64,000 nucleotides of DNA. It comes from Candidatus Kapaibacterium sp. (GTDB lineage Bacteria; Bacteroidota; Ignavibacteria; Kapaibacteriales; JAEUSM01). This document shows, piece by piece, positions 3,226 to 27,621 of the stretch; the first letter of the stretch is position 1, and the number at the start of each line of letters is the position of its first letter. The stretch is from the NCBI GenBank assembly GCA_016788785.1, contig JAEUSM010000011.1, positions 17,200-81,199 on the forward strand, given 5' to 3'. The position numbers and the translations under genes are program-made. Under the pieces are notes generated by a model that was given only the letters and a program-made list of their open reading frames with translations, was not told where the DNA came from and did no database searches.

Positions 3226-4119
3226 ATGCACTATACTCTCATCGACGGTTTATCGACAGCAAAAACAATTCGTGAAGAATTATCTATTGAAACACATACC
3301 ATTCATTCTTCGACAGGACATGCTCCTGGATTGGCATTACTTCTGGTCGGAAATAATCCAGCATCAGAAATTTACGTTACCAATAAAGCAAAAGCTTGTC
3401 AGGAAATTGGAATTAATTCAGTAATATTGCGTTTACCAGCTGAAACAACCCAAGATCAAATTTTACTGCAAATTCATCAGTGGAATGAAGACCCAACCAT
3501 TCACGGTATTTTAGTCCAATTGCCACTTCCTTCTCATGTTGACTCAACAGTTATCTTAGAGCAAATTAGTCCAGCAAAAGACGTAGATGGCTTCCATCCA
3601 TCGAATGTAGGAAATTTAGTGCTTGGTTTACCCGGTTTTGTTCCGTGTACTCCGTTAGGAATTGTTGAATTGATGAAACGCTATCAAATAGACCCATCTG
3701 GTAAGCATGTTGTGGTCTTGGGACGCTCCAATATCGTCGGAAAACCAATGGCAAATTTGCTCTATCACAAACGAGCTTACTCAAACGCCATCGTTACCAT
3801 TTGCCACACAGGTGCTAATGACATTCGTGATTATACTCGTCAAGCCGATATACTCATTGCAGCAGTGGGAGTTTCAAAACTAGTAACTGCTGATTATGTC
3901 AAAGAAGGAGTTGCGATTTTTGATGTTGGTATCAATCGTATTGATGCTCCAGAGAAAAAAAGTGGATATGCATTGTGTGGTGATGTTGATTTTGATTCAG
4001 TTCTTTCTAAGTGTAGTGCTATTACTCCCGTTCCAAAAGGAGTTGGTCCTATGACTATCGCGATGTTACTTTCCAATACAGTTCGTTCAGCACGAAAGTT
4101 TTTAACACCTTCTATCTAA
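3226..4119 (+). CDS. folD: bifunctional methylenetetrahydrofolate dehydrogenase/cyclohydrolase FolD
   Basis: ~297 aa; characteristic FolD blocks (LVQLPLP, DVDGFHP, GRSNIVGKPMA, PVPGGVGPMT). Confidence 0.9.
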   Translation: MHYTLIDGLSTAKTIREELSIETHTIHSSTGHAPGLALLLVGNNPASEIYVTNKAKACQEIGINSVILRLPAETTQDQILLQIHQWNEDPTIHGILVQLPLPSHVDSTVILEQISPAKDVDGFHPSNVGNLVLGLPGFVPCTPLGIVELMKRYQIDPSGKHVVVLGRSNIVGKPMANLLYHKRAYSNAIVTICHTGANDIRDYTRQADILIAAVGVSKLVTADYVKEGVAIFDVGINRIDAPEKKSGYALCGDVDFDSVLSKCSAITPVPKGVGPMTIAMLLSNTVRSARKFLTPSI

Positions 4120-4125
4120 TACGCT

Positions 4126-5766
4126 ATGATAACCTCATTATCATCTTGGAAACGATTAGAGCAATTAGCAACAGAAAAAAAGTCAGACAGTATCCTTTCT
4201 TATTTCCGGCTCGACAGTTTACGACTAAGGAAATATACATTTCGTGCGTGTGATTGTTATTTCGATTTTTCGAAAAATCTCCTTGTTGATGACGTTTTTT
4301 CGGCGTTATTGCAATTTGCGAAAGAACGAAATCTTGCAGATGAAATCAAACGAATGTTCAACGGTGAGGCTATCAATACCACAGAAAAACGAGCAGTGTT
4401 GCATACTGCTTTACGATCAAAAAAATCGACAATCAATGTTGATGGGGAAAATGTTGTACCGCTTGTAAACGCTGAATTAGAAAAAGTTCGAGTACTTTCG
4501 GAAAAAATTCGTTCTGGCGAATGGGTTGGGTTTTCTGGAAAACCCATCACCGATATTGTCAATATTGGCATTGGTGGTTCTGATTTGGGACCTGCGATGG
4601 TTACTCAAGCTTTATCGGCATATTCTCATCCTCAACTCACAATGCACTTTGTATCGAATGTGGATGGAACCCATCTTTGGGAAACATTGAAAAAGTGCAA
4701 TCAAGAAACAACATTGTTCATTGTCGCGTCAAAAACCTTTACAACCCAAGAAACTATCACCAATGCACTTGCTGCAAAACGGTGGATTCTAACCGCAACA
4801 ACAGATGAACATATAGCTAAACACTTTCTGGCAGTCTCTACTGCAATCGGCAAAGCAAAACAATTTGGTATCACAGAAGACAATATCGTTGGATTTTGGG
4901 ATTGGGTTGGTGGTCGATATAGCGTTTGGTCAAGCATCGGTATTTCTATTGCTATATCAATCGGTTTTGAAGGATTTTTGCAATTTCTTGACGGTGCGAA
5001 TGTGGTGGATACACATTTTGAAGCAGCTCCATTCTTCGAAAATATACCAGTTATAATGGGGCTGATTGGAATGTGGTATTGTACGTTTTTGGGATATGAT
5101 TCGTATGCAGTTTTGCCGTATGACCAGTACTTAGCACGATTCCCAGCGTATTTGCAACAACTCGATATGGAGTCAAATGGCAAAAGTGTTACTCGCACTG
5201 GAGAAAATGTAACGTATAAAACTGGACCCATTGTCTGGGGTGAACCGGGTACAAATGGACAACACGCTTTTTACCAATTGATTCATCAAGGAACTCGAAC
5301 GATACCGGTAGACTTTTTAGTTGCCAAAGAAGGATTGTCACCATACACAGATCAACATACCATTCTTCAAGCAAATTGTATTGCACAAGCTGAGGCATTG
5401 CTCATTGGAAAAAATGAAGAAACTGTTCGTGAAGAATTGAAAAACAATCTTAATGCAGAATTATTGATTCCACACAAAGTTTTTGAAGGGAACAAACCTT
5501 CGACAACAATTGTTTATCCAAAAATATCACCTAAAACTGTCGGTACCTTACTTGCACTGTACGAGCATAAAGTGTTTGTGCAAGGAATTTTGTGGGATAT
5601 CAATTCCTTCGATCAGTGGGGTGTGGAATTGGGCAAACAATTAGCATCAAATGTATTACCAGAATTACAAAAGTCAACGTCTCAGCGGGGTACACATGAC
5701 CCTTCAACTACTGCGTTGATTTCGTTACTTCAAAGAGATGATTCTGGCTTGAAAAAGGAAGGATGA
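4126..5766 (+). CDS. pgi: glucose-6-phosphate isomerase
   Basis: 546 aa; PGI signature blocks (GIGGSDLGP, FWDWVGGRYS, ESNGK, GEPGTNGQHAFYQL). Confidence 0.9.
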   Translation: MITSLSSWKRLEQLATEKKSDSILSYFRLDSLRLRKYTFRACDCYFDFSKNLLVDDVFSALLQFAKERNLADEIKRMFNGEAINTTEKRAVLHTALRSKKSTINVDGENVVPLVNAELEKVRVLSEKIRSGEWVGFSGKPITDIVNIGIGGSDLGPAMVTQALSAYSHPQLTMHFVSNVDGTHLWETLKKCNQETTLFIVASKTFTTQETITNALAAKRWILTATTDEHIAKHFLAVSTAIGKAKQFGITEDNIVGFWDWVGGRYSVWSSIGISIAISIGFEGFLQFLDGANVVDTHFEAAPFFENIPVIMGLIGMWYCTFLGYDSYAVLPYDQYLARFPAYLQQLDMESNGKSVTRTGENVTYKTGPIVWGEPGTNGQHAFYQLIHQGTRTIPVDFLVAKEGLSPYTDQHTILQANCIAQAEALLIGKNEETVREELKNNLNAELLIPHKVFEGNKPSTTIVYPKISPKTVGTLLALYEHKVFVQGILWDINSFDQWGVELGKQLASNVLPELQKSTSQRGTHDPSTTALISLLQRDDSGLKKEG

Positions 5767-6332
5767 ATCTTCGAAACGACTGTTTGATACCATAGTTTCG
5801 ATGCAATATACATACAGATAAAACTTTGTGCTGTGAATGCCAAAATAAAAAGTATGTAGGTAGTCGTAGAAGAATTCACAGAAGAAGTTAGCCACGAGCT
5901 TTTGTTGTTCGTCAGGAAAATGCTGATAGAAATACAAAACACAAAGGTCGCTGAACTTAGCAAAATCACCTTGTATTCTTGGTAAAATATGAGTATAGAT
6001 AACGATAGAAATGAAAAGAAATAGAGTTCTTCACGACCTTGAATGATGAATAAATACAGCAACGAAAAGAGCTGTAAAAGAACCCCAGTTGCATAACGAG
6101 TTAAAGAAGAAGTTCCGAACAGTTTCACACAATACAAATATGAACCCAAAAACAAGGTTGTTCCTACCAAACCAATGACATATTGACCAGTCAAAACGGT
6201 TAGAATCAATGAAAACACCGAAAAAGTAATCATCACTTTCTTCATCGTAAGGTCAACCCTACTATGCACTGATTTGCGAACATCACGCAAAAAATCATCA
6301 CCAAGAAAACGTTCTACTTGCTGTAAATTCAT
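5730..6332 (-). CDS. integral membrane protein, hypothetical
   Basis: 200 aa with about six hydrophobic helices; convergent with pgi and overlapping its 3' end by 37 bp. Confidence 0.4.
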   Translation of the reverse strand: MNLQQVERFLGDDFLRDVRKSVHSRVDLTMKKVMITFSVFSLILTVLTGQYVIGLVGTTLFLGSYLYCVKLFGTSSLTRYATGVLLQLFSLLYLFIIQGREELYFFSFLSLSILIFYQEYKVILLSSATFVFCISISIFLTNNKSSWLTSSVNSSTTTYILFILAFTAQSFICMYIASKLWYQTVVSKIHPSFFKPESSL

Positions 6333-6345
6333 GTATGTTGTGCAA

Positions 6346-6846
6346 TTAGTGGGAATGGGTGGAGGAATGTTCTACAATTTCTGGAGCACAATCAGGGCAA
6401 TATCCAGTAAATTCCATTGAGTGGTTGACAATGGTGAAATTTGTTGAAATTTTGATTTTTTCCAAAACACAGAAATCAATTTGATCTACTTTTTGGCATT
6501 GTAAACAACGAATGTAGTGGTAATGTTTGGTGTCATCTTGTTCTGCGATGACATAATGTTTTGCTTTAGAAGTGAATTGCATCGAACGAATGAGACCATG
6601 TTCTTCCATTACGTGAAGGTTTCGGTAAATAGTCGTCAGATTCAAATCTTGACATTGTTCTACTAAATCTTCCACGCTCACAGGGCGATTAAAACTTTCT
6701 AACGCTCGAAGAATGGTCGTTCGCGTTAATGTTTTACGATAGCCTAATTGTTCTAAACTTTGCTGTATGTTCTTTTTCATTGATTGTATTTTGTTCAACA
6801 TACGATTACCATCAAAGATTGTTTTACATAATTTGGTGGTACACAA
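6346..6846 (-). CDS. Fur-family metalloregulator (Fur/Zur/PerR)
   Basis: Winged-helix N-terminal region (ILRALESFNRPVSVEDLVEQ); HHxH block; two CxxC pairs (CLQC...CPDC). The true start may be an internal Met (MLNKIQ or MKKNIQ). Confidence 0.75.
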   Translation of the reverse strand: MCTTKLCKTIFDGNRMLNKIQSMKKNIQQSLEQLGYRKTLTRTTILRALESFNRPVSVEDLVEQCQDLNLTTIYRNLHVMEEHGLIRSMQFTSKAKHYVIAEQDDTKHYHYIRCLQCQKVDQIDFCVLEKIKISTNFTIVNHSMEFTGYCPDCAPEIVEHSSTHSH

Positions 6847-6889
6847 AACAAAAAGGAGCTATTCTTGCGAAATAGCTCCTTTGGAGTTA

Positions 6890-7327
6890 TTACAGTAATG
6901 CTCCCACATCATTGACTATTTGTTCAAATTGTTTGATGATGTGTTTTCCGGGACACAAAGTAGATGCACCGCTTAACTCTCGATGATAACGAATGGAAGC
7001 TCTATCAGCAGGTAATATATGCCGTTTGCAAATTCTTGCCAGTTGTTCTACCAAGAGTTTTCGAGCTTCTAAAGGTAATTCCGTTTCTTGGTAATTTCCA
7101 GCAACAGCAATTCCTATTGAACGCAAATTATGTCCTCGAGCGTGAGCACCAATCACTGATTCTTTACGACCTTCGGTTACAATCCAAACGCCATCAGGAC
7201 AATGGAGTAACCAATGATACCCAATTTCAGTGAACCCTCTCAGTCGGTGAGCTTTGTCGATGGTTTCGCGTTCTACATTCGGTCTGGTTGCTGTATGATG
7301 TACGATTATTTTGGTGATTGTTCTCAT
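6890..7327 (-). CDS. N-acetylmuramoyl-L-alanine amidase (Amidase_2/PGRP, T7-lysozyme-like)
   Basis: IVHHTA motif with a downstream His and a Cys near the C-terminus, as in zinc amidase_2 enzymes; 145 aa (endolysin-sized). Confidence 0.7.
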   Translation of the reverse strand: MRTITKIIVHHTATRPNVERETIDKAHRLRGFTEIGYHWLLHCPDGVWIVTEGRKESVIGAHARGHNLRSIGIAVAGNYQETELPLEARKLLVEQLARICKRHILPADRASIRYHRELSGASTLCPGKHIIKQFEQIVNDVGALL

Positions 7328-7614
7328 CGTTTTCTTTCCGAATGGTGATTCTGAAGTTCTTGGTTCATTTCTTGTACGTCTCGTTCAATTCTGTCTTTCC
7401 AAAGAGTTTGCTGTTCCAAAGCAAAAGAAACCCTTCGCATTTCCGTTTCAATTACCGTTATCTTATGGCTTACCTCTCCCAAACTCGAACCACCCCACAA
7501 CGTGGAACCTCCAACGATGAGACCCAGCATTATTTTCATCCATAAGGGAACGGAATTGTCAAAAAGTGGAGATTGTTGTTGTAACTTATTTTCCATATCT
7601 ATACTTTTTATCAT
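7324..7614 (-). CDS. small membrane / coiled-coil protein (holin- or spanin-like)
   Basis: One TM helix (WMKIMLGLIVGGSTLWGG) followed by a charged coiled-coil; 4-bp start/stop overlaps with both neighbours. Confidence 0.4.
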   Translation of the reverse strand: MIKSIDMENKLQQQSPLFDNSVPLWMKIMLGLIVGGSTLWGGSSLGEVSHKITVIETEMRRVSFALEQQTLWKDRIERDVQEMNQELQNHHSERKR

Positions 7615-8555
7615 AAACGTATTCCTTCCAATTGAGCAATGGATTTTGAGTGAACTAAGGCAATAGCCGCATCCAATTCCACAGTCGTTACATAGTGTAC
7701 ACCGACAATCCCACGGTCATAGACTTGCAAACCAGTATTTGTAGCAATGCTCAAATTCTCTTTTTCACCAAATCTAATAGCATAGATGCTGGTGCAATCA
7801 GCATTTGTTCCAACAGTCTCAGCATTTGTGATAACTTGCGATACCCCATCTTTTGCAACACCGCTGGATACGATAGGAATTCCCATATATGAGTCGAAAA
7901 CCTGTTGCGAACCAAAGGCATCGTTGACAGTTTGAACGCTGATATACTCTCGAGCAATGGCACGTAAACGAGCAATCATTTTATAGTTCATCACAATCAC
8001 CGAAGCGTTTCCATAAACAGAACCTATCAGCTCATCGAGTTTTTCCAAAAAAGTTTGCTGTTTTTGTTTGTTCGAATCAGAATTTCCTAAAGGAACGGTA
8101 TCGCCATTCGTACCCATCGAGATAATTTGTCCACTTGGTATCAATTCTTTGATACCCACCAAAGTAGAACCACTTCCATCACCATTGATAAATTGATCGG
8201 TACAAAAGCGTCCCAACGAACGAGAAAAACTCTCCAATTGTCTGGCACGTTCGGAAGTGGTCGTAAATCCGCGTCGTTCAAATGCTTGGTCAGTGCGAAT
8301 GACATCACCCAAAATTTTTAGTGAAACGGTCGTTTCGTTAACGCTGGAAGTAACGGGACTGTAGTCGTTATTTACTGTTCGAGTTTGACCGCCAAAAGCA
8401 GTTGCATTCGTTGTAAACGTATCTGCATTTCCAGTCATTTTGTACCATTCGGCATAGCGAAACAGCGGTGCCTCTGATTCGAATGCAGACAGTGCTAATG
8501 AGCGTAACTCGGGTGTAGATGAAGCAGTTTGGGTTGATAATTGTTGTAATTTCAT
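7611..8555 (-). CDS. phage major-capsid-like protein (hypothetical)
   Basis: 314 aa, no signal peptide or TM segment. Size and the Gly/Thr-rich, loop-heavy composition suggest a capsid (HK97/gpE-like) fold, but this is not confirmable by eye. It sits in an operon with an amidase and a holin-like gene. Confidence 0.35.
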   Translation of the reverse strand: MKLQQLSTQTASSTPELRSLALSAFESEAPLFRYAEWYKMTGNADTFTTNATAFGGQTRTVNNDYSPVTSSVNETTVSLKILGDVIRTDQAFERRGFTTTSERARQLESFSRSLGRFCTDQFINGDGSGSTLVGIKELIPSGQIISMGTNGDTVPLGNSDSNKQKQQTFLEKLDELIGSVYGNASVIVMNYKMIARLRAIAREYISVQTVNDAFGSQQVFDSYMGIPIVSSGVAKDGVSQVITNAETVGTNADCTSIYAIRFGEKENLSIATNTGLQVYDRGIVGVHYVTTVELDAAIALVHSKSIAQLEGIRL

Positions 8556-8567
8556 AAAGGTGAATCC

Positions 8568-8951
8568 TTAGAGTGATGATAAAAATGATTGTTCGGCTGC
8601 AGAACGTAGTGAAAGGTGAGAGGGAAGTGCTGTTGGCACTTGCGAAGTAGTTGTTTGTTTCGTTGACTGAAAGTATTCCAACACCGTTGCAATAGCCGTT
8701 GGATTATATTCTAACAGCGTTTTCACTGCATTCGATACATCTTCATTTAACGCAGGGTAATACCCTTTGTGAAGAAAGTCAGTAACGTGTTGATTAATTA
8801 CATCGGAAGAAGTCTTTTCAAACGCAGAAGATTGAATTTTTTCCAATTCAACTTCAATTGTTTTCATTTCTTCAGAATTTGAAACTAAGGAATGTTGTTC
8901 CTCATTATCACCAAAAAATTTGTCCACCAATGAGCGGATAGTGGTTAGCAT
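8568..8951 (-). CDS. hypothetical acidic alpha-helical protein (scaffold-like?)
   Basis: 127 aa, acidic, predicted helical; first gene of the capsid-like operon. Confidence 0.3.
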   Translation of the reverse strand: MLTTIRSLVDKFFGDNEEQHSLVSNSEEMKTIEVELEKIQSSAFEKTSSDVINQHVTDFLHKGYYPALNEDVSNAVKTLLEYNPTAIATVLEYFQSTKQTTTSQVPTALPSHLSLRSAAEQSFLSSL

Positions 8952-9100
8952 ACTGTGTACTTTCGGTAGGATTTACAAAATTGTGAATGCAATCTACTAC
9001 GGAGTGAAAGTTGGATTTGGCTATAAGTGTTGGGAGGGGGGGGAATGTTTCTTTACATCAAGATGGGCATTTTGACAACGATGAACCTTTTGACAACGAT

Positions 9101-9217
9101 GGGCTTACACCCATCGCTGAGATAGTACGCCCTTTCAGGGCTTGATGTTGTTTTTTTTAATGTGCGTTTTCACGATGGGCTTACACCCTTCGCTGAGATA
9201 GTACGCCCTTTCAGGGC
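9101..9217 (-). repeat. REP doublet (two copies of gggcttacaccc[a/t]tcgctgagatagtacgccctttcagggct)
   Basis: Two near-identical 42-nt double-hairpin units at 9101..9142 and 9176..9217, in direct orientation. They are the reverse complement of the REP units at 9770..9882. Confidence 0.85.
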
Positions 9218-9235
9218 TTTATGAATATGCTTTGT

Positions 9236-9688
9236 TTAATCCCAAAGATACTGTTCGTTGTAATCAATAGAATATTTATGTAAAAAAGCTTTATATTCTT
9301 CTTCAAATGAATTGTTTTTATGATGCTCATGCTGGTTATTAATGTAAGTAATTACTGCATCTATGTGTGTGGGATTTACTGAAAATGCTCCGTAACCATC
9401 TTGCCAATAAAAGTGCTCTAAAGTAGCATCCTTTGTTTTCATCCACATTGAGGATCTAGATTTAAGCTCTCCAACAAGTTTAGACAGAGCTATGTTTTTT
9501 GACAACAAACAAAGAATATGTATATGGTCAGTAAAACCTCCAACTTTTATAACTGTACATTGAAGTTTGTTGCAAATTTCACTCAGAAATTTATGTAATT
9601 CTGTTTCAACATTTGGTTGAATGTACGGACTTCTATTTTTTGTACTAAATACAATATGTATGTAATTTTTTACTAATGATTGTCCCAT
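9236..9688 (-). CDS. REP-associated tyrosine transposase (RAYT; IS200/IS605 TnpA-like, Y1 HUH)
   Basis: HUH motif (HIHIL), conserved Tyr in the C-terminal half, ~150 aa, flanked on both sides by REP doublets in inverted orientation. Confidence 0.8.
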   Translation of the reverse strand: MGQSLVKNYIHIVFSTKNRSPYIQPNVETELHKFLSEICNKLQCTVIKVGGFTDHIHILCLLSKNIALSKLVGELKSRSSMWMKTKDATLEHFYWQDGYGAFSVNPTHIDAVITYINNQHEHHKNNSFEEEYKAFLHKYSIDYNEQYLWD

Positions 9689-9769
9689 TTCTCTTCTCTT
9701 AAATGAATATTGATTCTATTTTTTCATCTTGACGATATTCAAAACAAAAGATGTAAATCAAGCCCTGAA

Positions 9770-9882
9770 AGGGCGTACTATATCAGCATAGGGTGTAAGC
9801 CCTATGTTGATAAATGTATTGTCATTTCAGTAAATCAAGCCCTGAAAGGGCGTATTGTATCAGCATAGGGTGTAAGCCCTAT
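9770..9882 (+). repeat. REP doublet (agccctgaaagggcgta[c/t]t[a/g]tatcagcatagggtgtaagccctatg)
   Basis: Units at 9770..9805 and 9837..9882. Each unit forms two hairpins (gccc-tgaaa-gggc and cataggg-tgtaa-gccctatg). Confidence 0.85.
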
Positions 9883-9890
9883 GCTGAAAC

Positions 9891-10523
9891 CTAAAATATT
9901 GGCTTTAGGTATTCCCAACCTTCGGCTCGCATATCAGTCCAAGAAAAACCGTCGGTGTCGTTACCGGGCATAACGAAGACTGCATCTGAAATACAAGTGG
10001 TGAAATCAATTTGTTTGATACGTTGGAGTAATGCAGAATAGGTTGTGCGGTCATTGATTGCGGATTCTTCGACAGAATCCGCAAATTCACTGAGTTTTTT
10101 GAAGGAGTTTTTTTGTTGAAGCAAAAAAAGTATTGACACTACGATGTAGTGTTTGTCGATGTCAATTCGGTCGGTATCGTTCCAATCTTCAGTTGCACCA
10201 CCTGTTTCTTGGTCTATGGAAGAAGAATCAATATCATCAACCCATTGATTGAACTCTTGTTCGGCTGTTTGTGGGTTATCAATGACATCCCAATATCCAT
10301 ATTCTGCGAAAGGGAGTAATTCCAAAAGCACATCCGAAGTTTCTTTATAGAATTTCCACTTTTGTCCAGCAGTTTGCTCTGACGGAATTGCTGCAATGGC
10401 AGAATGGATTCGTTCGCGAATATTATCTTCAACCGAATTGAGAATTACTAATTGTAACCCTACAAATCCAGATTCGTCTTCGTTAGCACCAAACAGTGCT
10501 TTAAACATTCCTTTAAACTTCAT
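9891..10523 (-). CDS. hypothetical acidic protein
   Basis: 210 aa, acidic (D/E/W-rich middle), no recognisable motif. First-listed gene of the three-gene unknown cluster. Confidence 0.4.
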   Translation of the reverse strand: MKFKGMFKALFGANEDESGFVGLQLVILNSVEDNIRERIHSAIAAIPSEQTAGQKWKFYKETSDVLLELLPFAEYGYWDVIDNPQTAEQEFNQWVDDIDSSSIDQETGGATEDWNDTDRIDIDKHYIVVSILFLLQQKNSFKKLSEFADSVEESAINDRTTYSALLQRIKQIDFTTCISDAVFVMPGNDTDGFSWTDMRAEGWEYLKPIF

Positions 10524-10535
10524 ATTTTCAGTTAC

Positions 10536-12161
10536 TTACGAGAAGAATCCACCACCACGTGAGCGTCCGAAAGATCCTGAACGAGTGCCGCCTCCAGAAC
10601 GGTAAGCAGAACGGAATGAAGAACCAAAACCAACTGTTTTTCCTGTTGCCATTGAACGATTGACGGTTACTTTGCCAAAACCAGTAGGGCGAGTTTTTCC
10701 AAATCCACCCTTTCCTCCTACTGAACGTGATGCAAAAGAGGTTGTTCTACGTGCAGGAGAATAATTTGGTGCTGATGCATAACGATTGTAAGCACCCGAT
10801 GGAATCGATGTTCTATAATATGAACGATACATTGGGTAATGATAGAAAAAGAACATAGAACCCATTGGAGAACCACCATAATAATAATTCGTTGCATATT
10901 GACCAGTTCTATTTGGATTTTGGTTTGCTGCAGCAACTTGTTCTTTTGTTTCTTCAAATCGAGAAATTGGTAGTAATGCTACTTGAATTCCTTTTTCACG
11001 ATAGGTTGCAAATTCTTCGTTTATATCATCTTTTTCAATTTCTAATTCCGAAGGGGTAATATACACTACATTAGTAATGCCAGCAGATTTCAATTCATCA
11101 ACTGTAGGCAAATCTACATTATAGCGATTGTCAAAATTACCTTCTTTGATTGGTTTTAACTTCCCATCTTTTTCGGATTCAAATCTATTTCTATCCAAAA
11201 GCATCACTGTCGCACGTTTTTTCGCAGTATTTTTTGCTTTTTCACGTTCAACATAGGATGCATAATAAAGAGAAGTAGCCAAGGTTTCATGAGCAGGAAC
11301 TTCGCCTAATGGGTGAGGCCAGTTATTGAATGTTGGAATCAAGTCTGCAACATCCGCTAATGCAGCACCAACTGCAACTGATTCCCAACCTTTTAAGTCA
11401 ACCACAACCAAATTTACTTCAGGATTTTGAGCGTCCAAAAGAATTTGACGAACGCCTAACCCTTTGTTGAAGGTAGTTTTGGTAATCTGATTTGCTGAGG
11501 CTTTCATTTGAGTTTGTAAGGTTTTTTGACCTAATGACTCATACAATGAAGCGGAACTATATTTTTTGAAACGCTCGTTTGAAGGCATATAGACCTTCTT
11601 GAGCATATCAGGATTTTTGTACTTATTCCATTGAGAAGATGGCATTCCCATGTAATCCATTTCTGTAGGTGCATTGAATGCAACTTTTAAATCATCTGCA
11701 CCGGTATCCCAACCTTCTTTTTTCTGCAAGGCAACGGAATCTTCTTCTGTAACAGTAACATCATCATCGTCATCTGAGACACATTGATATAGTAGATACC
11801 CTGCTAAAATTGTACCACCTGACCATGCTAATACTTTTCCTAAAGCTTTACGACGAGAAACTGGTTTTGCCTCTGAAAAAGACGACACATTTTCACCACT
11901 ACTTCCACTTGAAGAACGAATGGTATCCAATGCTTGATAATAAATCCAATAATAATTATGATCTCGTTCATTATCCAATTGATGCATTACATATTCATCT
12001 GGAAATGCGTCAATAGTTTCGTCATCAAATTCAACTAAAATTTGGTTATCTTCAATTTCACTAACACGTCCTGTCCATCCGGACATATCAATTTCAGTTT
12101 CTTTGTCATGGAACCCAGGCTTGATCTTTACAGGTGTACCTACAGTTAAATTGTGGCTCAT
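10536..12161 (-). CDS. hypothetical membrane-anchored protein with conserved central domain and RGG/YG-rich C-terminal tail
   Basis: 541 aa. One TM helix (res ~110-130), a DDDDD linker, and a central ~150-aa domain paralogous to the next gene (motifs NWPHPLG, LLD.NR, N..YITP). The C-terminal ~130 aa is Gly/Ser/Arg/Tyr/Phe-rich low complexity. Confidence 0.5.
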   Translation of the reverse strand: MSHNLTVGTPVKIKPGFHDKETEIDMSGWTGRVSEIEDNQILVEFDDETIDAFPDEYVMHQLDNERDHNYYWIYYQALDTIRSSSGSSGENVSSFSEAKPVSRRKALGKVLAWSGGTILAGYLLYQCVSDDDDDVTVTEEDSVALQKKEGWDTGADDLKVAFNAPTEMDYMGMPSSQWNKYKNPDMLKKVYMPSNERFKKYSSASLYESLGQKTLQTQMKASANQITKTTFNKGLGVRQILLDAQNPEVNLVVVDLKGWESVAVGAALADVADLIPTFNNWPHPLGEVPAHETLATSLYYASYVEREKAKNTAKKRATVMLLDRNRFESEKDGKLKPIKEGNFDNRYNVDLPTVDELKSAGITNVVYITPSELEIEKDDINEEFATYREKGIQVALLPISRFEETKEQVAAANQNPNRTGQYATNYYYGGSPMGSMFFFYHYPMYRSYYRTSIPSGAYNRYASAPNYSPARRTTSFASRSVGGKGGFGKTRPTGFGKVTVNRSMATGKTVGFGSSFRSAYRSGGGTRSGSFGRSRGGGFFS

Positions 12162-20659: not shown

Positions 20660-23600
20660 TTATCGATGAAGAAATGGGGTAACCTTTTGTACACTCGGAG
20701 TTTTTAATTGAACAAAGTACAACCCATTGGGTAAACGTTGATGAGGAATTACGATACTTTTTGTTTGAATCCCTTTGTTATCAAACAATATTGGCTCAAG
20801 TATTTGTACACCAATACTCGAATATAAACTCACTTCATGGAGACCATGTTCAATCATAGAAACGGAAACCACGATATCATGTTGCTGTTGAGTTATTCCA
20901 AGAGCTATAGTTGTGTCTGAATCAAAAACTAAACGATTTCCACCAGATTCACAAACTCCCAATAGTGTAAACGTTCCTGGTAATATTGTTACATCGATCG
21001 GAGCATTTGTAGCCATTGAGGTCAGTGCTGTTAACGACGTGATGGTATCATTACCCAACATCACATCGAAATTAATTTGATCAATAATTGGTTTTTTCTG
21101 TTCGTCAAGTTGATATCGCAAAGACTCCTCGCGAATACCTCCAGATAAAACAACGCCCTTTTTTGAAAGTGGGTACAGCAATGTAGCATTGTATTGAAGG
21201 GTAAATTCTATTTCAGGTTGTACTCCCAATACATCAGTATTTGTTTCTGATACTATCGAAACGGGTATTGAAACCTTATCACCTGGATATCCCTGAGCTG
21301 AACCAATTTGCAAAACAATTGCAGCTTGAGTAGGAATTCCCTCAACTTTGAACGTATCTTGTACTCCGCAAACATCTCCTGTAAGAACGACATCTACTGA
21401 GGATGCTGTTGTCGTTGCTGCAGAATAAATCACGGGAACAAAGACAGATTGATTGGCTGCTACAAAAAGTGTTATAAAAGTCGTATCAAGCGAAAATGGT
21501 GATATCAGGGAAAATTGTGGTAAACTTACATCTGTTGATGAAGTATTTGTAACTTTCACATACCCTCGTTTTTGCGTTCCTACGATTGCAAAAAGTTGTA
21601 AAGGTGTGATTTCTATTTGTGGATGAATAACCGTACCTGTCAAACGAATTGTATCGATTTTTCCGCAAATGGTATTTGTCAAATATAGCTCTTTTGTAAA
21701 ACTTCCAACTGAATCTTTAACAGTAAGGCTACATTGCAGCGTTGTTTGATTCCCAACATCTACATTCGCAGTTGTTAATGTAGGGTTGTCGATTATTTGT
21801 GTATAAGAAATGGAAGCTGGTAATGAACCAATATTTGTAACATTAATAGTAAATGGCACAACACTTCCAAAACAAACAGTTCCAATATCAATAAGTTGCG
21901 GAGTTTGTATATCAATCAAATCCTTACGAGCTTGTATCGGTATTGATAATGCTGTATCTGTTATGGAATTACTTCGAACAATTATCGATGTTTGTTTGGT
22001 ACCAAATGTTTGAGGCACGAACCGAATTTCAATGCTTCCTGTCTCATTTGGTTCAACTGTTTGTGGGAACGAAACAATCTCAAAATCTGTAGCATTTGCT
22101 CCAGTAGGAGTCACAGAATATAACGATAACGAACTGATCCCACTATTGGATATGACAATCGTACTTCGTTGCTCAGTTTCGCACGTAATTGGAGCAAAAT
22201 TTGCAGTTGTTACTTGCATTTCTGCTCCTTTGTTTATTCCAGTTCCAAATAGCGGAGCATACAACGGTGAACCAACCTTGTCATACGCAATTGCAACCCT
22301 TCCCGAAGTCCTTCCGATTGCGTTGGGACGAAATGCTATATCAGAATACAATGTATCGCCAGGTTTCAATGTTACAGTAGGCATTTGTTGTAACGGTAGA
22401 AAATCTACGACATTTGGCTCAATAATAGAAGTACCTAACACATCAACTGAAGCAGATCCACGGTTAATTGCCAATGGAATTCTCGTAGAGTCTTTTTGTT
22501 GATACAGATTCACTTCACCAAAATCAACATAATTTGCTATAAGTTCTAACGAAGATTCTAATCCAATACCTTTGACTGTATATTCCAAAGTATCGCAGGG
22601 AGTTTTGATAGTAATGAGACCTTCACGAGGACCTTGTTGTTTAGGGGAAAATCGAACTTCTATCGGCAATGAGTTATTTGCTAAAACCATTTGTTTACCA
22701 GCCGAACTGACTATCTCAAATTCGTTAGGAAGTGACGATTCCACCCAAACGGTATCGATTGATGCATCATATTGACTAGCATTGAGAGTATAACTCATAA
22801 ACATAGAGTCACGTGAGGTTCCAACAACTTGAGCCGGAAATTCGATATTTCTAGCACTCAATGTTGGTCGAACAATACTCCATACATTATCAGATGTATC
22901 TTGTTGAAGTGGCAGGACATCAGCAGACCATAATCTTGCGGTTCTATCTGTACTTGTTGTAATAAAATAATCACCCAAATGAGTAAAAAACGCTTTTGTA
23001 ATAAACGGTGTATTGAAGGTCTCATGTCGAACTACAGCCAATTGTTCACCGGATTCTACATCGAAAATACGAGCAGTTCTATCATCGCCATACGTAAGAA
23101 TTTTAGTTTCATCTGGAGAAAGCTGATATCCTATTACATTTCCTGTGTGACCAATGTAAGCAACTAAAAGATTTCCATTGGTACTGCTCCAGCTTCGAAC
23201 AATACGGTCATTACTGATGGTGAACATTTTCGTTCCCGAACGATTCAAAGTTGCTTCCATCCCACCAACTACATACAAAAAAGTTTTAGAAAACACGTCA
23301 AAGACAACGGTTTTTTCATCACTCGATCCATACACCCAACGGTTGTTTTTAAAGAACCCACATTGTTCCATCCCCCAACCATCTGCTTTAAAAATAGCAA
23401 TGGTATCATACGTTTTTGCATCCCAAATACGGAGAAATCCGTCGCGTGAGGCAGTAGCAATTTTTGTCCTGTCATCTGAAACTGCTGCTGAATGCACAAT
23501 GTCTGTGTGATAAACTAAGGTAGCAAGTAATGCTCCAGTTCGAGAATACCACACTCGAACCGTTCTATCATTCGACGATGAAAGCAGTAAAGAATCATCT

Positions 23601-25378
23601 TGCGAGAATGTTAGGTGATTGATACCGCTTGTATGTCCACGTAAAGAAAATATAGTATCAATGGTTGTTGGATTCCACAAAAATATCGATCTATTTGAAT
23701 GAGAAGTGGCAAATCGAGTTGCTTTGTTGTTGTAAAGAATATTGTTTGGAAGTCCTGCATTTCCGTAGCGTAATCTTGCTAACGTATCTCCAGTGAAAAC
23801 ATCCCACATATAGACAAAGTTATCTTGTGAAACCGTAATAAACTTGTCTTCTTTGGGAGATGCAACGCCATCAGTTACAGATTCACGATGAAGTCGATAG
23901 GATTTGAGAGAATCTAATGGTGCTGAGGACAGTTGTTTTACTCTCAACAAACATTGCGTAGAAGTTGGAAGTGGAATATTTTTCCAATAGTAAGCAAGTC
24001 CTGCACCTTGACGTGTAATCAGATTCCATTTTTTTCCTTTATCGTAACTATATTCTATACTAACTGTGTCCAAAGAGGTAATTCCTGACCAACGAAGAAT
24101 CGAATCAGTTCCTGCAACCAATTGTTCTCTTCCATTAGGGAAATCAACCTTTAATGTTCGAAATTTGGGTCTTTTACCTCTGAATCCTCCTGAAGCATAA
24201 AATAACTGTTCACCACATTCAGTCGTTTGGAACCGAAGTTCGGTAAAGGTAAATCCTGAGTCCTTTGGAAAATACGACAATGTTAAAAACACAGAATCTC
24301 CAGAATTTAGCGAGAAGTTTCGTGGTGCAATAGTATAATCAGGATTAACAGTAATAATATTGGAAATGGTCACATCACCATTCATAGCAACTACTTTGAT
24401 AGTCGTATCATATTGCTGATTGAGTGGTTTATTGAAAAACGTTACTTGTTTCGGATACACTTGCAATTCTTTTACCGCAAGATCTCGAGGTGCGACATAC
24501 CTACCAGTATCCACCGAATTGCTGGGTTTATATGTTGCTTTTACGGTTCTATTTCCATTGCCACACGTTACAAATCCCTCCCATTCAATATGACATGGAG
24601 TTACCTCAATTGCTTCAAGAAATATTTGCTGAATGACAGCATTCATCTGCTCAATTGTCGAGATATTTTGAAACACCTTTCCATTCGTTTGATTCGCAAT
24701 GTAAAATAACGAAGCTGGTGCTGACATACTCAGCGTTATACAGTAAATCGTAACACTATCTTGTTGGGCGTCTCTAACGATTTTTTGCACATCTCCACCA
24801 CCTTGACCATCGGTGATAAACAACACAATTCGTTTGTTTTTTCCATTCTTTGCAACAGGTATTGCACCTGCTAATGGCACCCATAACGCTTGGTCGTAAT
24901 TCGTTCCACCTTGCGGTTTGAGCAATGGAATTTTCGACAGCAAAGTTTCCTTTTTTTTGGTGAAATCTTGCAACAAATACTGACTATTATCAAAGGCAGT
25001 AAGAGCTATTTCGGATTCAAACGGAAGTAAATTCGTAATTTGTTTAGTACCTTCTTTCAGAAGCACCATATTGGAAACACCAGATGCTCCCCAACTCATC
25101 GAACCGGAAACATCAGCCGTTACAACAATGGAAAGCTTCTTTGCAGTATCCATCACCGAACATTGCACCAATCGAACAGTTCGGGGCACTTGGTTTTCTT
25201 CAATAAGAACGTCCGAAACGTTTGGAGTGATAAGCGTACCCACCGAATCAAAGACAAACATCTTTGCCGAAATCAACGGAAAATTCGTCGGATCAATGCC
25301 AAAAAGCGTAACTCCTTGTGAAAATACGCTCGACATTGCAACAAAAAATATCCAAAAGCAAGTAAATAAAAACCGCAT
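20660..25378 (-). CDS. giant secreted vWA / WD40 / Ig-like repeat protein with T9SS C-terminal sorting domain
   Basis: 1572 aa. Signal peptide; vWA domain with MIDAS DxSxS (DVSGSMS); a WD40 propeller region (res ~500-800, repeated ...SxDxxxxxWD); a long run of Ig-like beta domains; a C-terminal ~80 aa typical of a Por-secretion CTD. Confidence 0.75.
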   Translation of the reverse strand: MRFLFTCFWIFFVAMSSVFSQGVTLFGIDPTNFPLISAKMFVFDSVGTLITPNVSDVLIEENQVPRTVRLVQCSVMDTAKKLSIVVTADVSGSMSWGASGVSNMVLLKEGTKQITNLLPFESEIALTAFDNSQYLLQDFTKKKETLLSKIPLLKPQGGTNYDQALWVPLAGAIPVAKNGKNKRIVLFITDGQGGGDVQKIVRDAQQDSVTIYCITLSMSAPASLFYIANQTNGKVFQNISTIEQMNAVIQQIFLEAIEVTPCHIEWEGFVTCGNGNRTVKATYKPSNSVDTGRYVAPRDLAVKELQVYPKQVTFFNKPLNQQYDTTIKVVAMNGDVTISNIITVNPDYTIAPRNFSLNSGDSVFLTLSYFPKDSGFTFTELRFQTTECGEQLFYASGGFRGKRPKFRTLKVDFPNGREQLVAGTDSILRWSGITSLDTVSIEYSYDKGKKWNLITRQGAGLAYYWKNIPLPTSTQCLLRVKQLSSAPLDSLKSYRLHRESVTDGVASPKEDKFITVSQDNFVYMWDVFTGDTLARLRYGNAGLPNNILYNNKATRFATSHSNRSIFLWNPTTIDTIFSLRGHTSGINHLTFSQDDSLLLSSSNDRTVRVWYSRTGALLATLVYHTDIVHSAAVSDDRTKIATASRDGFLRIWDAKTYDTIAIFKADGWGMEQCGFFKNNRWVYGSSDEKTVVFDVFSKTFLYVVGGMEATLNRSGTKMFTISNDRIVRSWSSTNGNLLVAYIGHTGNVIGYQLSPDETKILTYGDDRTARIFDVESGEQLAVVRHETFNTPFITKAFFTHLGDYFITTSTDRTARLWSADVLPLQQDTSDNVWSIVRPTLSARNIEFPAQVVGTSRDSMFMSYTLNASQYDASIDTVWVESSLPNEFEIVSSAGKQMVLANNSLPIEVRFSPKQQGPREGLITIKTPCDTLEYTVKGIGLESSLELIANYVDFGEVNLYQQKDSTRIPLAINRGSASVDVLGTSIIEPNVVDFLPLQQMPTVTLKPGDTLYSDIAFRPNAIGRTSGRVAIAYDKVGSPLYAPLFGTGINKGAEMQVTTANFAPITCETEQRSTIVISNSGISSLSLYSVTPTGANATDFEIVSFPQTVEPNETGSIEIRFVPQTFGTKQTSIIVRSNSITDTALSIPIQARKDLIDIQTPQLIDIGTVCFGSVVPFTINVTNIGSLPASISYTQIIDNPTLTTANVDVGNQTTLQCSLTVKDSVGSFTKELYLTNTICGKIDTIRLTGTVIHPQIEITPLQLFAIVGTQKRGYVKVTNTSSTDVSLPQFSLISPFSLDTTFITLFVAANQSVFVPVIYSAATTTASSVDVVLTGDVCGVQDTFKVEGIPTQAAIVLQIGSAQGYPGDKVSIPVSIVSETNTDVLGVQPEIEFTLQYNATLLYPLSKKGVVLSGGIREESLRYQLDEQKKPIIDQINFDVMLGNDTITSLTALTSMATNAPIDVTILPGTFTLLGVCESGGNRLVFDSDTTIALGITQQQHDIVVSVSMIEHGLHEVSLYSSIGVQILEPILFDNKGIQTKSIVIPHQRLPNGLYFVQLKTPSVQKVTPFLHR

Positions 25379-25439: not shown

Positions 25440-25910
25440 ATTTTCTTATTTTCTATGATCTAAGAACAACAATCAGAATCGTAGAGACGCCCTATATGTG
25501 TGTTTCAAGCTGAGAACGGTCTAGCCCTGAAAGGGCGTATTATATAAGCATAGGGTGTAAGCCCTATGATGAAAGCCCCTCTTTCCCTAACCCTCTCCCC
25601 AAGGGGCGAGGGAAAAATCTATTTTTTTCAATGTAGACTTACTCCCTAAATTTTTTGTTTACAAACAATAACAACTCCCTCTCCCCTTTGGGGAGAGGGT
25701 ACGGGGAGAGGGGTGATTTTATGGTTGTTTCCTTCTTTCTATAAATATCTGACTACTACGTGGTCAAGAATCATTCACTTCACACGTAAAGACGCCCTAT
25801 ATGGGCGTCTCATACAAAAAATCACACATAACAACTCCTTCGCCCCTTGGGGGAGAGGGTAAGCAGAGAGTGGATGTTTTTTATATTTTTCTGGAGTTTC
25901 TAACTACTCA
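25440..25910. repeat. repeat-rich intergenic region (REP copy plus several other GC-rich palindromes)
   Basis: REP unit at 25523..25568. Perfect palindrome agacgccctatatgggcgtct at 25785..25805, with a half-copy near 25485. Two copies of aacaactcc.tc.cccctttggggagagggta hairpins near 25673 and 25831. Confidence 0.8.
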
Positions 25911-26015: not shown

Positions 26016-26831
26016 TTAAGTATTTACTGATTGATATATTGCTTTCTCTTCTAAAAAAATTTTTAGTTGATCGTCTTGATTTATTAACTTTTCGGAGTAA
26101 GCGACTTTACCACCATTTGCTGATATTCCGTTTATTCTGGTCTGAGCAATTTCTAAATATTCTTGACTTATTTCAAAACCAATAAAATTTCGCTTAAGTC
26201 TTTTGGCAATAACTCCTGTAGTTCCACTTCCTGTGAATGGGTCAAGAATTGTGTCGCCCTGTTTGCTACCTAACAATATAATTCTTTCTAAAAGTGTTTC
26301 TGGTTTTTCTGTTGGATGTGAAGTTTTGTGTCTTTCTGCATTAATTTCCCATAGGTTTCTCATTTGCTTTCCTCCGTTTATCATTTTTGCAGTAACGTAA
26401 TCAAAGTAATATTTCTTTGTTTTACTTGCAACCCAAATAAGCTCAGTTGATGGTGCAAGCCGATTTTTTGATAACAAAGGTGCAGCATTTTTTTTGTACC
26501 AAATCACATCATTTATTATCCACAAATTTAACTTTTTCAGAATTACACCAATTGACGGATGATTATGTAAAGTTCCTGAAATCCATATTGTACCATCGTC
26601 TGCCAAAACACGAATACACTCTTTTACCCAAGATTCATTGAATTCATGAATGTCGTCAATAATATCCCAATCTCCTTTATCACAAGTAACCATTTTACCA
26701 CTTTGTACGGTTTGAAATGTTGCTCCCGACAAATTGTAAGGTGGGTCAGCAAAAATTTGATTAATGCTACCAGAAGGTAATTTTTTTAGGAGTTCAACGC
26801 AATTACCCAGGTGTAATTTTATATCAGACAT
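26016..26831 (-). CDS. DNA methyltransferase, beta-class N6A/N4C (motif IV DPPY ... motif I FxGxG)
   Basis: FADPPYNLSG near the N-terminus; ILDPFTGSGTTG near the C-terminus; 271 aa. Confidence 0.85.
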   Translation of the reverse strand: MSDIKLHLGNCVELLKKLPSGSINQIFADPPYNLSGATFQTVQSGKMVTCDKGDWDIIDDIHEFNESWVKECIRVLADDGTIWISGTLHNHPSIGVILKKLNLWIINDVIWYKKNAAPLLSKNRLAPSTELIWVASKTKKYYFDYVTAKMINGGKQMRNLWEINAERHKTSHPTEKPETLLERIILLGSKQGDTILDPFTGSGTTGVIAKRLKRNFIGFEISQEYLEIAQTRINGISANGGKVAYSEKLINQDDQLKIFLEEKAIYQSVNT

Positions 26832-27621
26832 ATTCTTCCGTTTTTGGGGTTAATCGTTCTTCAGCTATTTTCAAATAGTCAGAATTATTCTCTATTCCAA
26901 TCCAATTTCGATTTAATTTTCTTGCCACAAAACCTGTTGTTCCTGTTCCAAAAAATGGGTCAAGTATAGTATCATTTTCATTTGATGATGCTTTAATAAT
27001 TAACTCCAAAAGCCTTTCAGGTTTTTGTGTTGGGTGCAAAGCACGACCTTTTTCTCCTCGTAATCTTTCTCTTCCTTGAACGATTGGAAGTTCAATAAAA
27101 TCTAGAAAATCACGCATTTGCTTATCTTTTCCCTCTTTGGTTTTATTGTGATTGAATTTTTTAACTTCATCATAATTAAAAACCCAATTTTTACCTTTGA
27201 CAAACCAACAAACAAATTCAGTTGAATGTGTGTAAGTTCGTTTTGTGATGTTTGGCATTGCGTTCACTTTATACCAAGTTAAAATGTTATTCAACTTGAA
27301 GCCAATTTTTTTTGCTTCTACTACAATTTCGCCAATGTTATGCTGAGTACACGAAATATAAAGACTTCCGTTAGGTAATAAAATTCTATGGCTTGCTTTT
27401 AACCAATCAGCTGTAAACTTTAAATAATCATCATAATTAAACGTGTCCCAATCTTCATTTACTTTGTAAAATGCTCCGCCTGTTTTATTGTTTTCAAGTT
27501 TTAAAGAATTTCCCGAAAGATTATAAGGAGGGTCGGCAAAAATCAGATGTATAGAATTATCAACAATATATTTGTTGATGATTTCAATACAATCACCATT
27601 ATGTATTTTATTCAATTCCAT
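26824..27621 (-). CDS. DNA methyltransferase, beta-class N6A/N4C (paralog of the downstream MTase)
   Basis: FADPPYNLSGN and ILDPFFGTGTTG; 265 aa; 8-bp overlap with the next MTase; shares its start position with the stop of the putative REase. Confidence 0.85.
   Translation of the reverse strand: MELNKIHNGDCIEIINKYIVDNSIHLIFADPPYNLSGNSLKLENNKTGGAFYKVNEDWDTFNYDDYLKFTADWLKASHRILLPNGSLYISCTQHNIGEIVVEAKKIGFKLNNILTWYKVNAMPNITKRTYTHSTEFVCWFVKGKNWVFNYDEVKKFNHNKTKEGKDKQMRDFLDFIELPIVQGRERLRGEKGRALHPTQKPERLLELIIKASSNENDTILDPFFGTGTTGFVARKLNRNWIGIENNSDYLKIAEERLTPKTEEYV

Follow-up and report, generated by a model that had tools for sequence, protein, structure and literature searches.

One known system in which a stand-alone shell gene of the HK97 fold sits in a bacterial chromosome is that of the encapsulins, which presumably arose from capsid genes of prophages and comprise Family 1 (PF04454), Family 2, Family 3 (PF05065, inside a biosynthetic gene cluster) and Family 4 (PF08967) (PMC8346489). 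Tailocins and gene transfer agents (GTAs) are further cases of domesticated phage structural genes, the former keeping tails and the latter containing heads. The locus considered here invites comparison with all of these. It is a group of four genes (hereafter the module) in a 64-kb stretch of Candidatus Kapaibacterium DNA (contig JAEUSM010000011.1; hereafter the window, in which coordinates are counted from the first letter), and it encodes a phage-type major capsid protein (MCP) together with three smaller proteins, in a coupled, terminated operon that is vertically inherited at one locus under strong purifying selection. The reading that we prefer, and to which we would give an even chance of being correct, is that the module is a 2.6-kb head-plus-lysis fragment of a Mu-like siphophage, fixed in the Candidatus Kapabacteria chromosome and kept by selection as a portal-less shell plus a wall-breaching pair. 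Its genes are these:

p127, positions 8568-8951, minus strand, 127 amino acids (aa): apparently a shortened scaffold-domain homologue, without a protease domain

Capsid protein, positions 7611-8555, minus strand, 314 aa: phage-type HK97-fold MCP

p96, positions 7324-7614, minus strand, 96 aa: orphan protein with a single transmembrane helix and a coiled coil

Amidase, positions 6890-7327, minus strand, 145 aa: single-domain Amidase_2 protein of T7-lysozyme/PGRP type

All four open reading frames (ORFs) stand on the minus strand where the first-pass annotation of this DNA had placed them, and the 4-bp start/stop overlaps that it reported are also correct: the capsid/p96 and p96/amidase junctions both read ATGA, an overlap that is retained at both junctions in every related lineage, while the p127 stop lies 12 nt ahead of the capsid start.

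The 314-aa protein is a phage-type MCP with the HK97 fold, of the epsilon15 gp7/Mu-like siphophage family. It had previously been called capsid-like on size and composition only, with an encapsulin regarded as an alternative to a phage-type HK97 fold; the capsid assignment is borne out both by matches to phage MCP families and by a modelled structure, and the type is that of a phage. In sequence it matches phrog_212 (major head protein) over its full length (2.9e-35, residues 25-313) and scores above the curated threshold for NCBIfam NF045672 (MCP_gp7_epsi_15), with 97.8 bits against a required 75 (residues 21-312); its match to Pfam PF05065 (Phage_capsid) is sub-threshold (20.5 vs 24.2). An AlphaFold2 (AF2) model made from 55 homologues, with a predicted local distance difference test score (pLDDT) of 85.7 and a predicted template modelling score (pTM) of 0.83, gave 389 matches at E<=1e-3 when compared with the PDB using Foldseek, every one of them a capsid or an encapsulin. 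The top matches were family 2 encapsulins, the RcGTA capsid (6tb9), HK97 and T5, at E values of about 1e-13 to 1e-11 and template modelling (TM) scores of about 0.5-0.64, a range that does not discriminate among shell types. Among the predicted viral structures of BFVD, the best matches were siphovirus MCPs with TM scores of 0.84 and 0.78 (E 6e-22 and 4e-20), so that the comparison stands at 0.84 for viral capsids as against 0.64 for encapsulins. Conservation among 52 phage relatives reaches 85% or more in 35 alignment columns; the protein retains 34 of these, and it carries no lineage-specific insertions or deletions.

Homologues of the capsid protein (their loci are given L-numbers below; the relatives compared are all metagenome-derived, and the genome pattern search for the capsid used a 16-sequence alignment) fall into two groups with an identity gap between them. 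Those at 84-95% identity carry the four-gene module, and carry it at one chromosomal position in every case, within the gene order PMT_2, 276 aa, 537 aa, 210 aa, module, fur, 200 aa, PGI, FolD. This order holds in L001-3/L010, L009, L062 and L064, which represent at least four diverged Candidatus Kapabacteria lineages, and one Candidatus Kapabacteria metagenome-assembled genome encodes proteins 100% identical to p127 and to p96. The four genes plus fur are therefore arranged alike in at least four lineages; the first-pass annotation had itself named the lack of any capsid or encapsulin fold, together with a cluster absent or scrambled in close relatives, as what would undo its proposal, and what was found is a capsid fold in a cluster whose order is kept. 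Homologues at 58% identity or less, on the other hand, lie in prophages or viral contigs, and among the viral contigs none has a capsid gene above 58% identity. The closest phage relatives of the capsid, at 58%, 54% and 40% identity, belong to prophages that are complete, having Portal_Mu, terminase, Mu Gam and tape measure genes as well as a scaffold-like gene directly 5' of the capsid gene. Virion morphogenesis genes (portal, terminase, head completion, tail) are present around capsid relatives at 58% identity or less, but were not found beside the capsid gene in the window or in the orthologous flanks. Several related phages have, immediately 3' of the capsid gene, small membrane proteins, an Amidase_2 lysin or both; the sequence of scaffold, capsid, membrane protein and lysin genes is accordingly ancestral and not an artefact of deletion. 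A metagenome scan for relatives with an empty site, anchored on the neighbouring 210-aa protein, returned only two contigs that were already known.

The strength of selection on the module was estimated as dN/dS, the ratio of non-synonymous to synonymous divergence, by the Nei-Gojobori method, and can be compared with that on housekeeping genes nearby. The values below are for the window against L009, L062 and L001, in that order:

Capsid: dN/dS 0.034, 0.042 and 0.040; aa identity 95, 91 and 84%

Amidase: dN/dS 0.05 (L009 only, dS being saturated for the others); aa identity 91, 92 and 79%

p96: dN/dS 0.03, 0.10 and 0.17; aa identity 99, 69 and 59%

p127: dN/dS 0.20, 0.33 and 0.44; aa identity 80, 68 and 47%

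PGI: dN/dS 0.047, 0.086 and 0.076; aa identity 91, 83 and 72%

FolD: dN/dS 0.057, 0.059 and 0.086; aa identity 93, 89 and 78%

TyrRS: dN/dS 0.068 and 0.087 and aa identity 87 and 81% (L062 and L001 only)

The capsid protein is better conserved in amino-acid identity than PGI, FolD or TyrRS, and its dS values (0.96, 1.38 and 2.81) run parallel to those of PGI (1.06, 1.37 and 2.93), indicating that it has diverged together with its host. Some of the variation within the module is mosaic. The core of the p96 gene (7394-7574) shows 97-98% nucleotide identity between the window and L009 with about 75-90% around it, and the 3' half of the amidase gene (6926-7105) shows 88-98% between L009 and L062; short tracts of homologous recombination between lineages are the likely cause, and explain the low p96 dS (0.15).

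These results bear directly on the choice, left undecided by the first-pass annotation, between a decayed prophage fragment and a domesticated element. Because the module is syntenic in at least four lineages and under purifying selection no weaker than that on the neighbouring housekeeping genes, it is domesticated rather than decaying, and the bacterium very probably uses it. That it might nevertheless be a functionless prophage remnant whose decay is simply pending we find barely credible: it certainly comes from a phage, and REP-like repeats and an IS200-like element abut it, but against this all four ORFs are intact in at least four lineages at dS values of 1-3, with capsid and amidase dN/dS at 0.03-0.05, and a copy that truly is decaying (that of L025) has, unlike the module, a capsid gene split into ORFs of 134 and 122 aa.

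Turning to the partners of the capsid protein, p127 gave no family match, and its relationship to known proteins has to be approached through the related prophages. In these the gene immediately 5' of the capsid gene encodes a coiled-coil protein of 178-192 aa that matches PHROG head maturation protease profiles in their C-terminal part only, the part that corresponds to the scaffold portion of proteins of the Mu gpI/gpZ type. Residues 48-126 of p127 align with the C-terminal half of these scaffold-like proteins in hhalign (E=1.3e-5, probability 81%), and in tblastn the L001 orthologue of p127 is 29.5% identical to the 189-aa protein of L004 over 78 aa. On this sequence evidence it can be said with moderate confidence that p127 is a shortened homologue of the prophage scaffold domain. 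The protein is conserved at both its N- and C-termini and more laxly elsewhere, and it ends in an invariant C-terminal helix, LSLRSAAEQSFLSSL; its AF2 model is all-helical with a disordered linker at 97-110 (pLDDT 63). A ferritin-like cargo function was considered for p127 and rejected, as its single ExxH motif (EEQH) is not kept in L001. At the nucleotide level the first 120 nt of the gene (8832-8951) show 85-93% identity in all lineage pairs, compared with 43-83% for the rest, which hints at some extra constraint on the 5' end, such as a translation initiation or regulatory element.

The amidase presents fewer difficulties. It matches PF01510 (Amidase_2) at 2.6e-14 and phrog_822 (amidase) at 1.1e-21, its nearest solved structures are small single-domain amidases (PDB 6srt, 2.6e-13; T7 lysozyme, 2e-10), and it has neither a signal peptide nor a wall-binding domain. 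All four lineages share H10/H11, Y37, H115 and C125 of the motif without change, and the motif residues are taken, from what is established for T7 lysozyme, to be the zinc ligands. By sequence this is an N-acetylmuramoyl-L-alanine amidase of endolysin type, with an intact predicted catalytic site.

The third partner, p96, has one glycine-zipper-like transmembrane helix (residues about 24-46, with glycines at 31, 35, 36, 41, 42 and 46) followed by a charged coiled-coil tail, and an invariant core of about 50 residues. As far as sequence searching can tell it is a lineage-restricted orphan: there is no Pfam, PHROG, NCBIfam or PADLOC family match, tblastn against the phage collection found nothing at E<=1, only 8 protein clusters contain it (all of them from Kapabacteria), and an exhaustive HMMER search of 1.84 billion representatives with a p96 profile returned its own cluster plus two spurious short stretches. 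Small membrane proteins of the related prophages were tried as counterparts and rejected by hhalign, namely the transmembrane/coiled-coil proteins p101 of L004, p65 of L015 and p71 of L022 (probability 0.2%) and the glycine-rich transmembrane protein p110 of L004 (probability 1.9%). For p96 as a holin speak the transmembrane helix with its charged tail and the ATGA coupling to the amidase gene, while no holin family was matched and no homologue was found beyond the lineage; from its architecture p96 is a candidate holin-like or membrane-anchoring partner.

With the parts described, the possibility can be considered that the module encodes a nanocompartment similar to an encapsulin, in which a cytoplasmic shell would be accompanied by p127 as a scaffold turned cargo or adaptor protein, and p96 and the amidase would serve some non-lytic end (tethering, or wall remodelling). 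The HK97 fold itself, the high ranking of family 2 encapsulin shells in the PDB comparison, the presumed descent of encapsulins from prophage capsid genes and the lack of packaging genes in the window all fit this, and the conserved C-terminal peptide of p127 recalls cargo-loading peptides. However, there is no enzyme cargo, and inspection of the amidase sequence shows no extension like the C-terminal peptide of p127 that could target it to the shell; the capsid belongs to no encapsulin Pfam family and is, as its TM scores indicate, far nearer to viral capsids than to encapsulins; and no encapsulin operon so far described has anything like this tight translational coupling to a lysin-type amidase. 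We regard a nanocompartment as unlikely on this balance.

Much depends also on what is missing. The claim that portal, terminase, tail and integrase genes are lacking was upheld, family and profile searches of the 64-kb window having found none of them, nor any head-maturation protease. (The 1572-aa ORF at 20660-25378, which by its length might have been a tape measure, was rejected as such, being a WD40/VWA/DUF1573 protein.) A dispersed system could account for this if heads and lysis were supplied by the module, and portal, terminase and tail were encoded elsewhere or came from a helper phage. GTAs can be multilocus (PMC5026251), and compact, tail-less head-plus-lysis elements do exist in Ignavibacteriaceae (L019 and L025). 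Nevertheless such an arrangement seems very improbable, as no such genes occur in the 64-kb window or within +-10 kb of the module in four relatives, there is no maturation protease, and nothing indicates mobility, synteny and dS both tracking the host genes. The Ignavibacteriaceae elements just mentioned deserve a brief description in their own right. At L019 (5603-12428 of OY759785.1) and L025 (5519-12518 of OY762937.1), both in Ignavibacteriaceae chromosomes, genes for a portal, a large terminase, a protease-scaffold protein, a capsid, a 75-aa protein with two transmembrane helices, a transmembrane protein of about 158 aa and an Amidase_2 protein are packed together, with no tail genes within +-10 kb and with a 1137-aa helicase-like gene adjoining; they may be tail-less satellites or GTA-like elements.

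The transcriptional organisation of the module, and its relation to the neighbouring fur gene, is best followed from four further features:

Positions 8972-9024, minus strand: putative promoter region of the module, upstream of p127 (from alignment of upstream regions)

Positions 6844-6882, minus strand: intrinsic terminator of the four-gene operon (from a terminator scan and an inverted-repeat search)

Positions 6346-6802, minus strand: Fur-family gene with its own upstream dyad, a separate neighbouring unit outside the module

Positions 5730-6332: gene for a 200-aa protein with several transmembrane helices, downstream of fur

The region 5' of p127 is conserved over about 95 nt between the closest lineages. 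It contains the block ATAGCCAAA(T/A)CC (9013-9024), common to the window, L009 and L001, and an AT-rich dyad, TTCACAATTTTGTAAA (8972-8987), within which lies a -7-like element of Bacteroidota type, CAATTTTG (8976-8983); on these grounds the region is put forward as the module promoter. A sigma-70 promoter scan, which found 13 sites where shuffled sequences led one to expect 12.9, is uninformative for a host of Bacteroidota type. At the other end of the operon, the terminator, a strong one, begins 7 nt past the amidase stop (6882->6852 plus the T-run); its 13-bp stem contains G+C and carries a loop of 5 nt, and a T-run follows. In L009, L062 and L001/L010 a hairpin with T-run is found at the same place, formed from different stem sequences and with energies of -15 to -24 kcal/mol.

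The first-pass annotation had the operon reading straight into fur across a gap of 43 bp, and suggested control by the Fur-family protein; none of this is supported. The short gap requires fur to start at the TTG at 6846, which would give the protein an N-terminal extension that is not kept in orthologues, while alignment of orthologues places the conserved fur start most probably 84 nt later than assumed, at the ATG at 6762 (MKKNIQQ; 138 aa), and this makes the spacer between amidase and fur 127 nt. Besides the conserved terminator, that spacer contains a dyad of 7-2-7 form, TATGTTGAACAAAATA (6787-6802), about 25-40 nt ahead of the fur start and present in three of the four lineages, which may serve the Fur-family protein as an operator for autoregulation; it is not present upstream of p127. 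Nor was any Fur, PerR or Zur box found upstream of the module in any lineage at a usefully low number of mismatches: scans of four lineages with the Fur/PerR/Zur consensus and for 7-n-7 repeats gave nothing conserved upstream of p127, the same consensus was not found upstream of fur either, and the E. coli-type Fur box has 0 matches in the window at <=3 mismatches. That the operon should after all read into fur, or be under Fur-family (metal) control, we consider very unlikely in the face of the terminator, the spacer with a dyad of its own and the lack of any such box, even though in every lineage fur adjoins the module on the same strand, the amidase is a zinc enzyme and no other regulator lies nearby. 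We infer from the sequence features that module and fur are separate transcription units whose adjacency is historical; regulation in trans through an operator of another type might still occur. The protein itself matches FUR at 5.6e-17, with no assignment from the matches to the Fur, Zur and PerR subtypes. As a side observation, the gene as originally delimited (6346-6846) also encodes a match to a phage family, phrog_13084 (3.7e-18), from which it follows that Fur-like genes occur in phages; in the related prophage loci, no homologue of fur or of the 200-aa protein was found.

On the upstream side of the module the surroundings are more variable. Two conserved genes on the same strand (9891-12161) always lie upstream of it, encoding a 210-aa protein with a sub-threshold DUF1517 match and a 541-aa protein with a C-terminal tail rich in Gly, Arg and Ser; their dN/dS is 0.05-0.08, and no connection to the module has been established. 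An insertion hot spot, however, lies where the 210-aa gene meets the module. In the window it holds the sole mobile-element gene near the module, that of an IS200-like Y1 transposase (9236-9688; Y1_Tnp 2.4e-28), whereas in L009 the corresponding interval (3824-9136 of JGI Ga0164290_1000311, equivalent to about 8952-9890 of the window) is occupied instead by a defence island (AIPR, GmrSD_N+HNH and an EcoRI-type methylase), and in L001 and L062 there is neither. Differing short G+C hairpins are found at the junction in L009 and L062. The transposase gene is flanked by two hairpin repeats on each side in opposite orientation, with the core GCCCTGAAAGGGCGTA (within 9097-9217 and 9761-9883), and a fifth copy lies at 25524 (25523-25568); four of the five are called as the Rfam RF01687 Acido-Lenti-1 sRNA. 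The layout is like that of a RAYT transposase with repetitive extragenic palindromic (REP) elements, which suggests that RF01687 may here be a REP-type repeat. The window further contains two restriction-modification (R-M) systems, one at 26016-29630 (an AlwI-like endonuclease with two N6/N4 methyltransferases) and one at 34634-36867 (a C-5 cytosine methyltransferase with an NgoFVII-like endonuclease).

Such surroundings raise the question of whether the module might itself act against phages. The resident capsid and scaffold proteins could co-assemble with the procapsids of an invader and poison them, or act as a decoy, with p96 and the amidase bringing about premature, abortive lysis, and a retained late promoter could be switched on by the invader's late activator. 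Phages with 40-58% identical capsids do exist in Bacteroidota/Ignavibacteria metagenomes, the L009 defence island sits exactly at the upstream junction of the module, the window carries the two R-M systems, activation in trans would agree with there being no linked repressor, and assembly interference is an established defence strategy in the case of tails (PMC11364771). Set against this, no component has a match in PADLOC-DB 2.0 above noise level, no experimental precedent for a resident capsid gene acting in this way was found in the literature, and it is not obvious that a dominant-negative action would need 34 of 35 conserved positions to be retained or the whole protein to be so strongly constrained. 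This possibility, too, has in our estimation only an outside chance.

In the head-plus-lysis reading that we prefer, p127 would dock on the inner face of the capsid protein via its invariant C-terminal helix and nucleate a closed shell, which, made without portal, terminase or protease, would be free of DNA and would probably keep its scaffold. The co-translated p96 would oligomerise in the inner membrane through its glycine-zipper helix, glycine-zipper-like transmembrane segments being typical of channel formers, and would so allow the signal-less amidase to reach the peptidoglycan. Cells firing the operon would then open their walls and release particles or cell contents, much as tailocin and GTA producers lyse, with a head in place of a tail.

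There are several points that weigh against this proposal. We know of no benefit that would come from releasing empty capsids. Constitutive expression of the operon would kill the cell, yet it has no evident repressor gene. The host is presumably diderm, but a spanin was looked for in vain: neither the Rz/Rz1 nor the unimolecular type gave a family match, and there is no ORF between the amidase and the terminator. The homology of p127 to the scaffold domain is moderate (the 81% probability already given) and its structure model is poor, while p96 is called holin-like from its architecture alone and has no homologue elsewhere. Finally, portal, terminase and tail genes could be present elsewhere in the genome, the window covering only 64 kb of it.

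As to what the module may mean more generally, the known encapsulin families are too diverged to show the transition from prophage to encapsulin. Here, by contrast, a capsid protein 58% identical to that of an intact prophage behaves as a core host gene and has kept its scaffold and lysis neighbours, making early steps of domestication directly testable. It is conceivable, though doubtful as yet, that this represents an independent and comparatively recent capsid domestication caught at an intermediate stage and a new class of phage-derived device, either a released, DNA-free particle as a head-based counterpart to tailocins or a capsid-based anti-phage decoy coupled to abortive lysis; the shell gene, fully viral in appearance, would on this view long have belonged to the host. 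Should the particle prove to be released or to interfere with phages, it would be a head-based counterpart both to tailocins and to defences that interfere with tail assembly. For annotation, the lesson is that a lone pair of phage capsid and lysin genes is not necessarily prophage junk.

It remains to compare the module with the known systems more closely, beginning with the phages themselves. The Mu-like siphoviral prophages L004 (IMGVR_UViG_3300015615_001163) and L007 (GCA_039810545.1) have capsids of the same family (58% and 40% identity) and the same order of scaffold-like, capsid and small membrane protein genes, p127 corresponding to about the C-terminal half of their scaffold-like protein. 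They are, however, complete prophages, whereas the module amounts to four genes, with p127 one-third shorter and with p96 and the amidase lacking a detectable counterpart there. Capsid-forming phage-inducible chromosomal islands (PICIs), and the L019 and L025 elements, resemble the module in having a capsid gene of their own in the chromosome and no tail genes, and L019 and L025 share with it the order capsid, holin-like protein, amidase; but these keep portal, large terminase and protease and look mobile (with two copies in one chromosome), while the module has none of those genes and a fixed locus.

Tailocins (R- and F-type pyocins) are alike in being domesticated, vertically inherited structural genes combined with a lysis cassette, and in both cases the producer would lyse. 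The difference is that tailocins keep tails and discard heads, and the module does the reverse; to our knowledge there is no conceivable killing function for a bare capsid. In common with the module, GTAs of the RcGTA type are domesticated head-containing remnants with lysis genes, and the RcGTA capsid (6tb9) is among its best structural matches, but lacking portal, terminase, protease and tail, the module could not package or deliver DNA with the parts that it encodes.

The likeness to encapsulins lies in the stand-alone HK97 shell gene in a chromosome, free of packaging and tail genes and under selection at the level of the host, and in the adjacent partner protein with its conserved C-terminal peptide. 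By sequence, nonetheless, the module capsid is a phage MCP of the ordinary kind, 58% identical to one from a prophage and within NF045672; measured against the published families (PMC8346489) it has no PF04454 or PF08967 match, a sub-threshold PF05065 match and no biosynthetic gene cluster context. Its partner is a scaffold homologue and not an enzyme cargo, and the operon runs on into a membrane protein and a lysin. In its presumed way of working the module comes nearest to an encapsulin or to a domesticated structure of tailocin/GTA type. Judged on sequence and gene content, however, it is neither an encapsulin nor a tailocin nor a GTA, but a case of a phage capsid family represented outside any phage; the aspect in which it is new is that an HK97 capsid gene has been domesticated with its scaffold and lysis partners retained.

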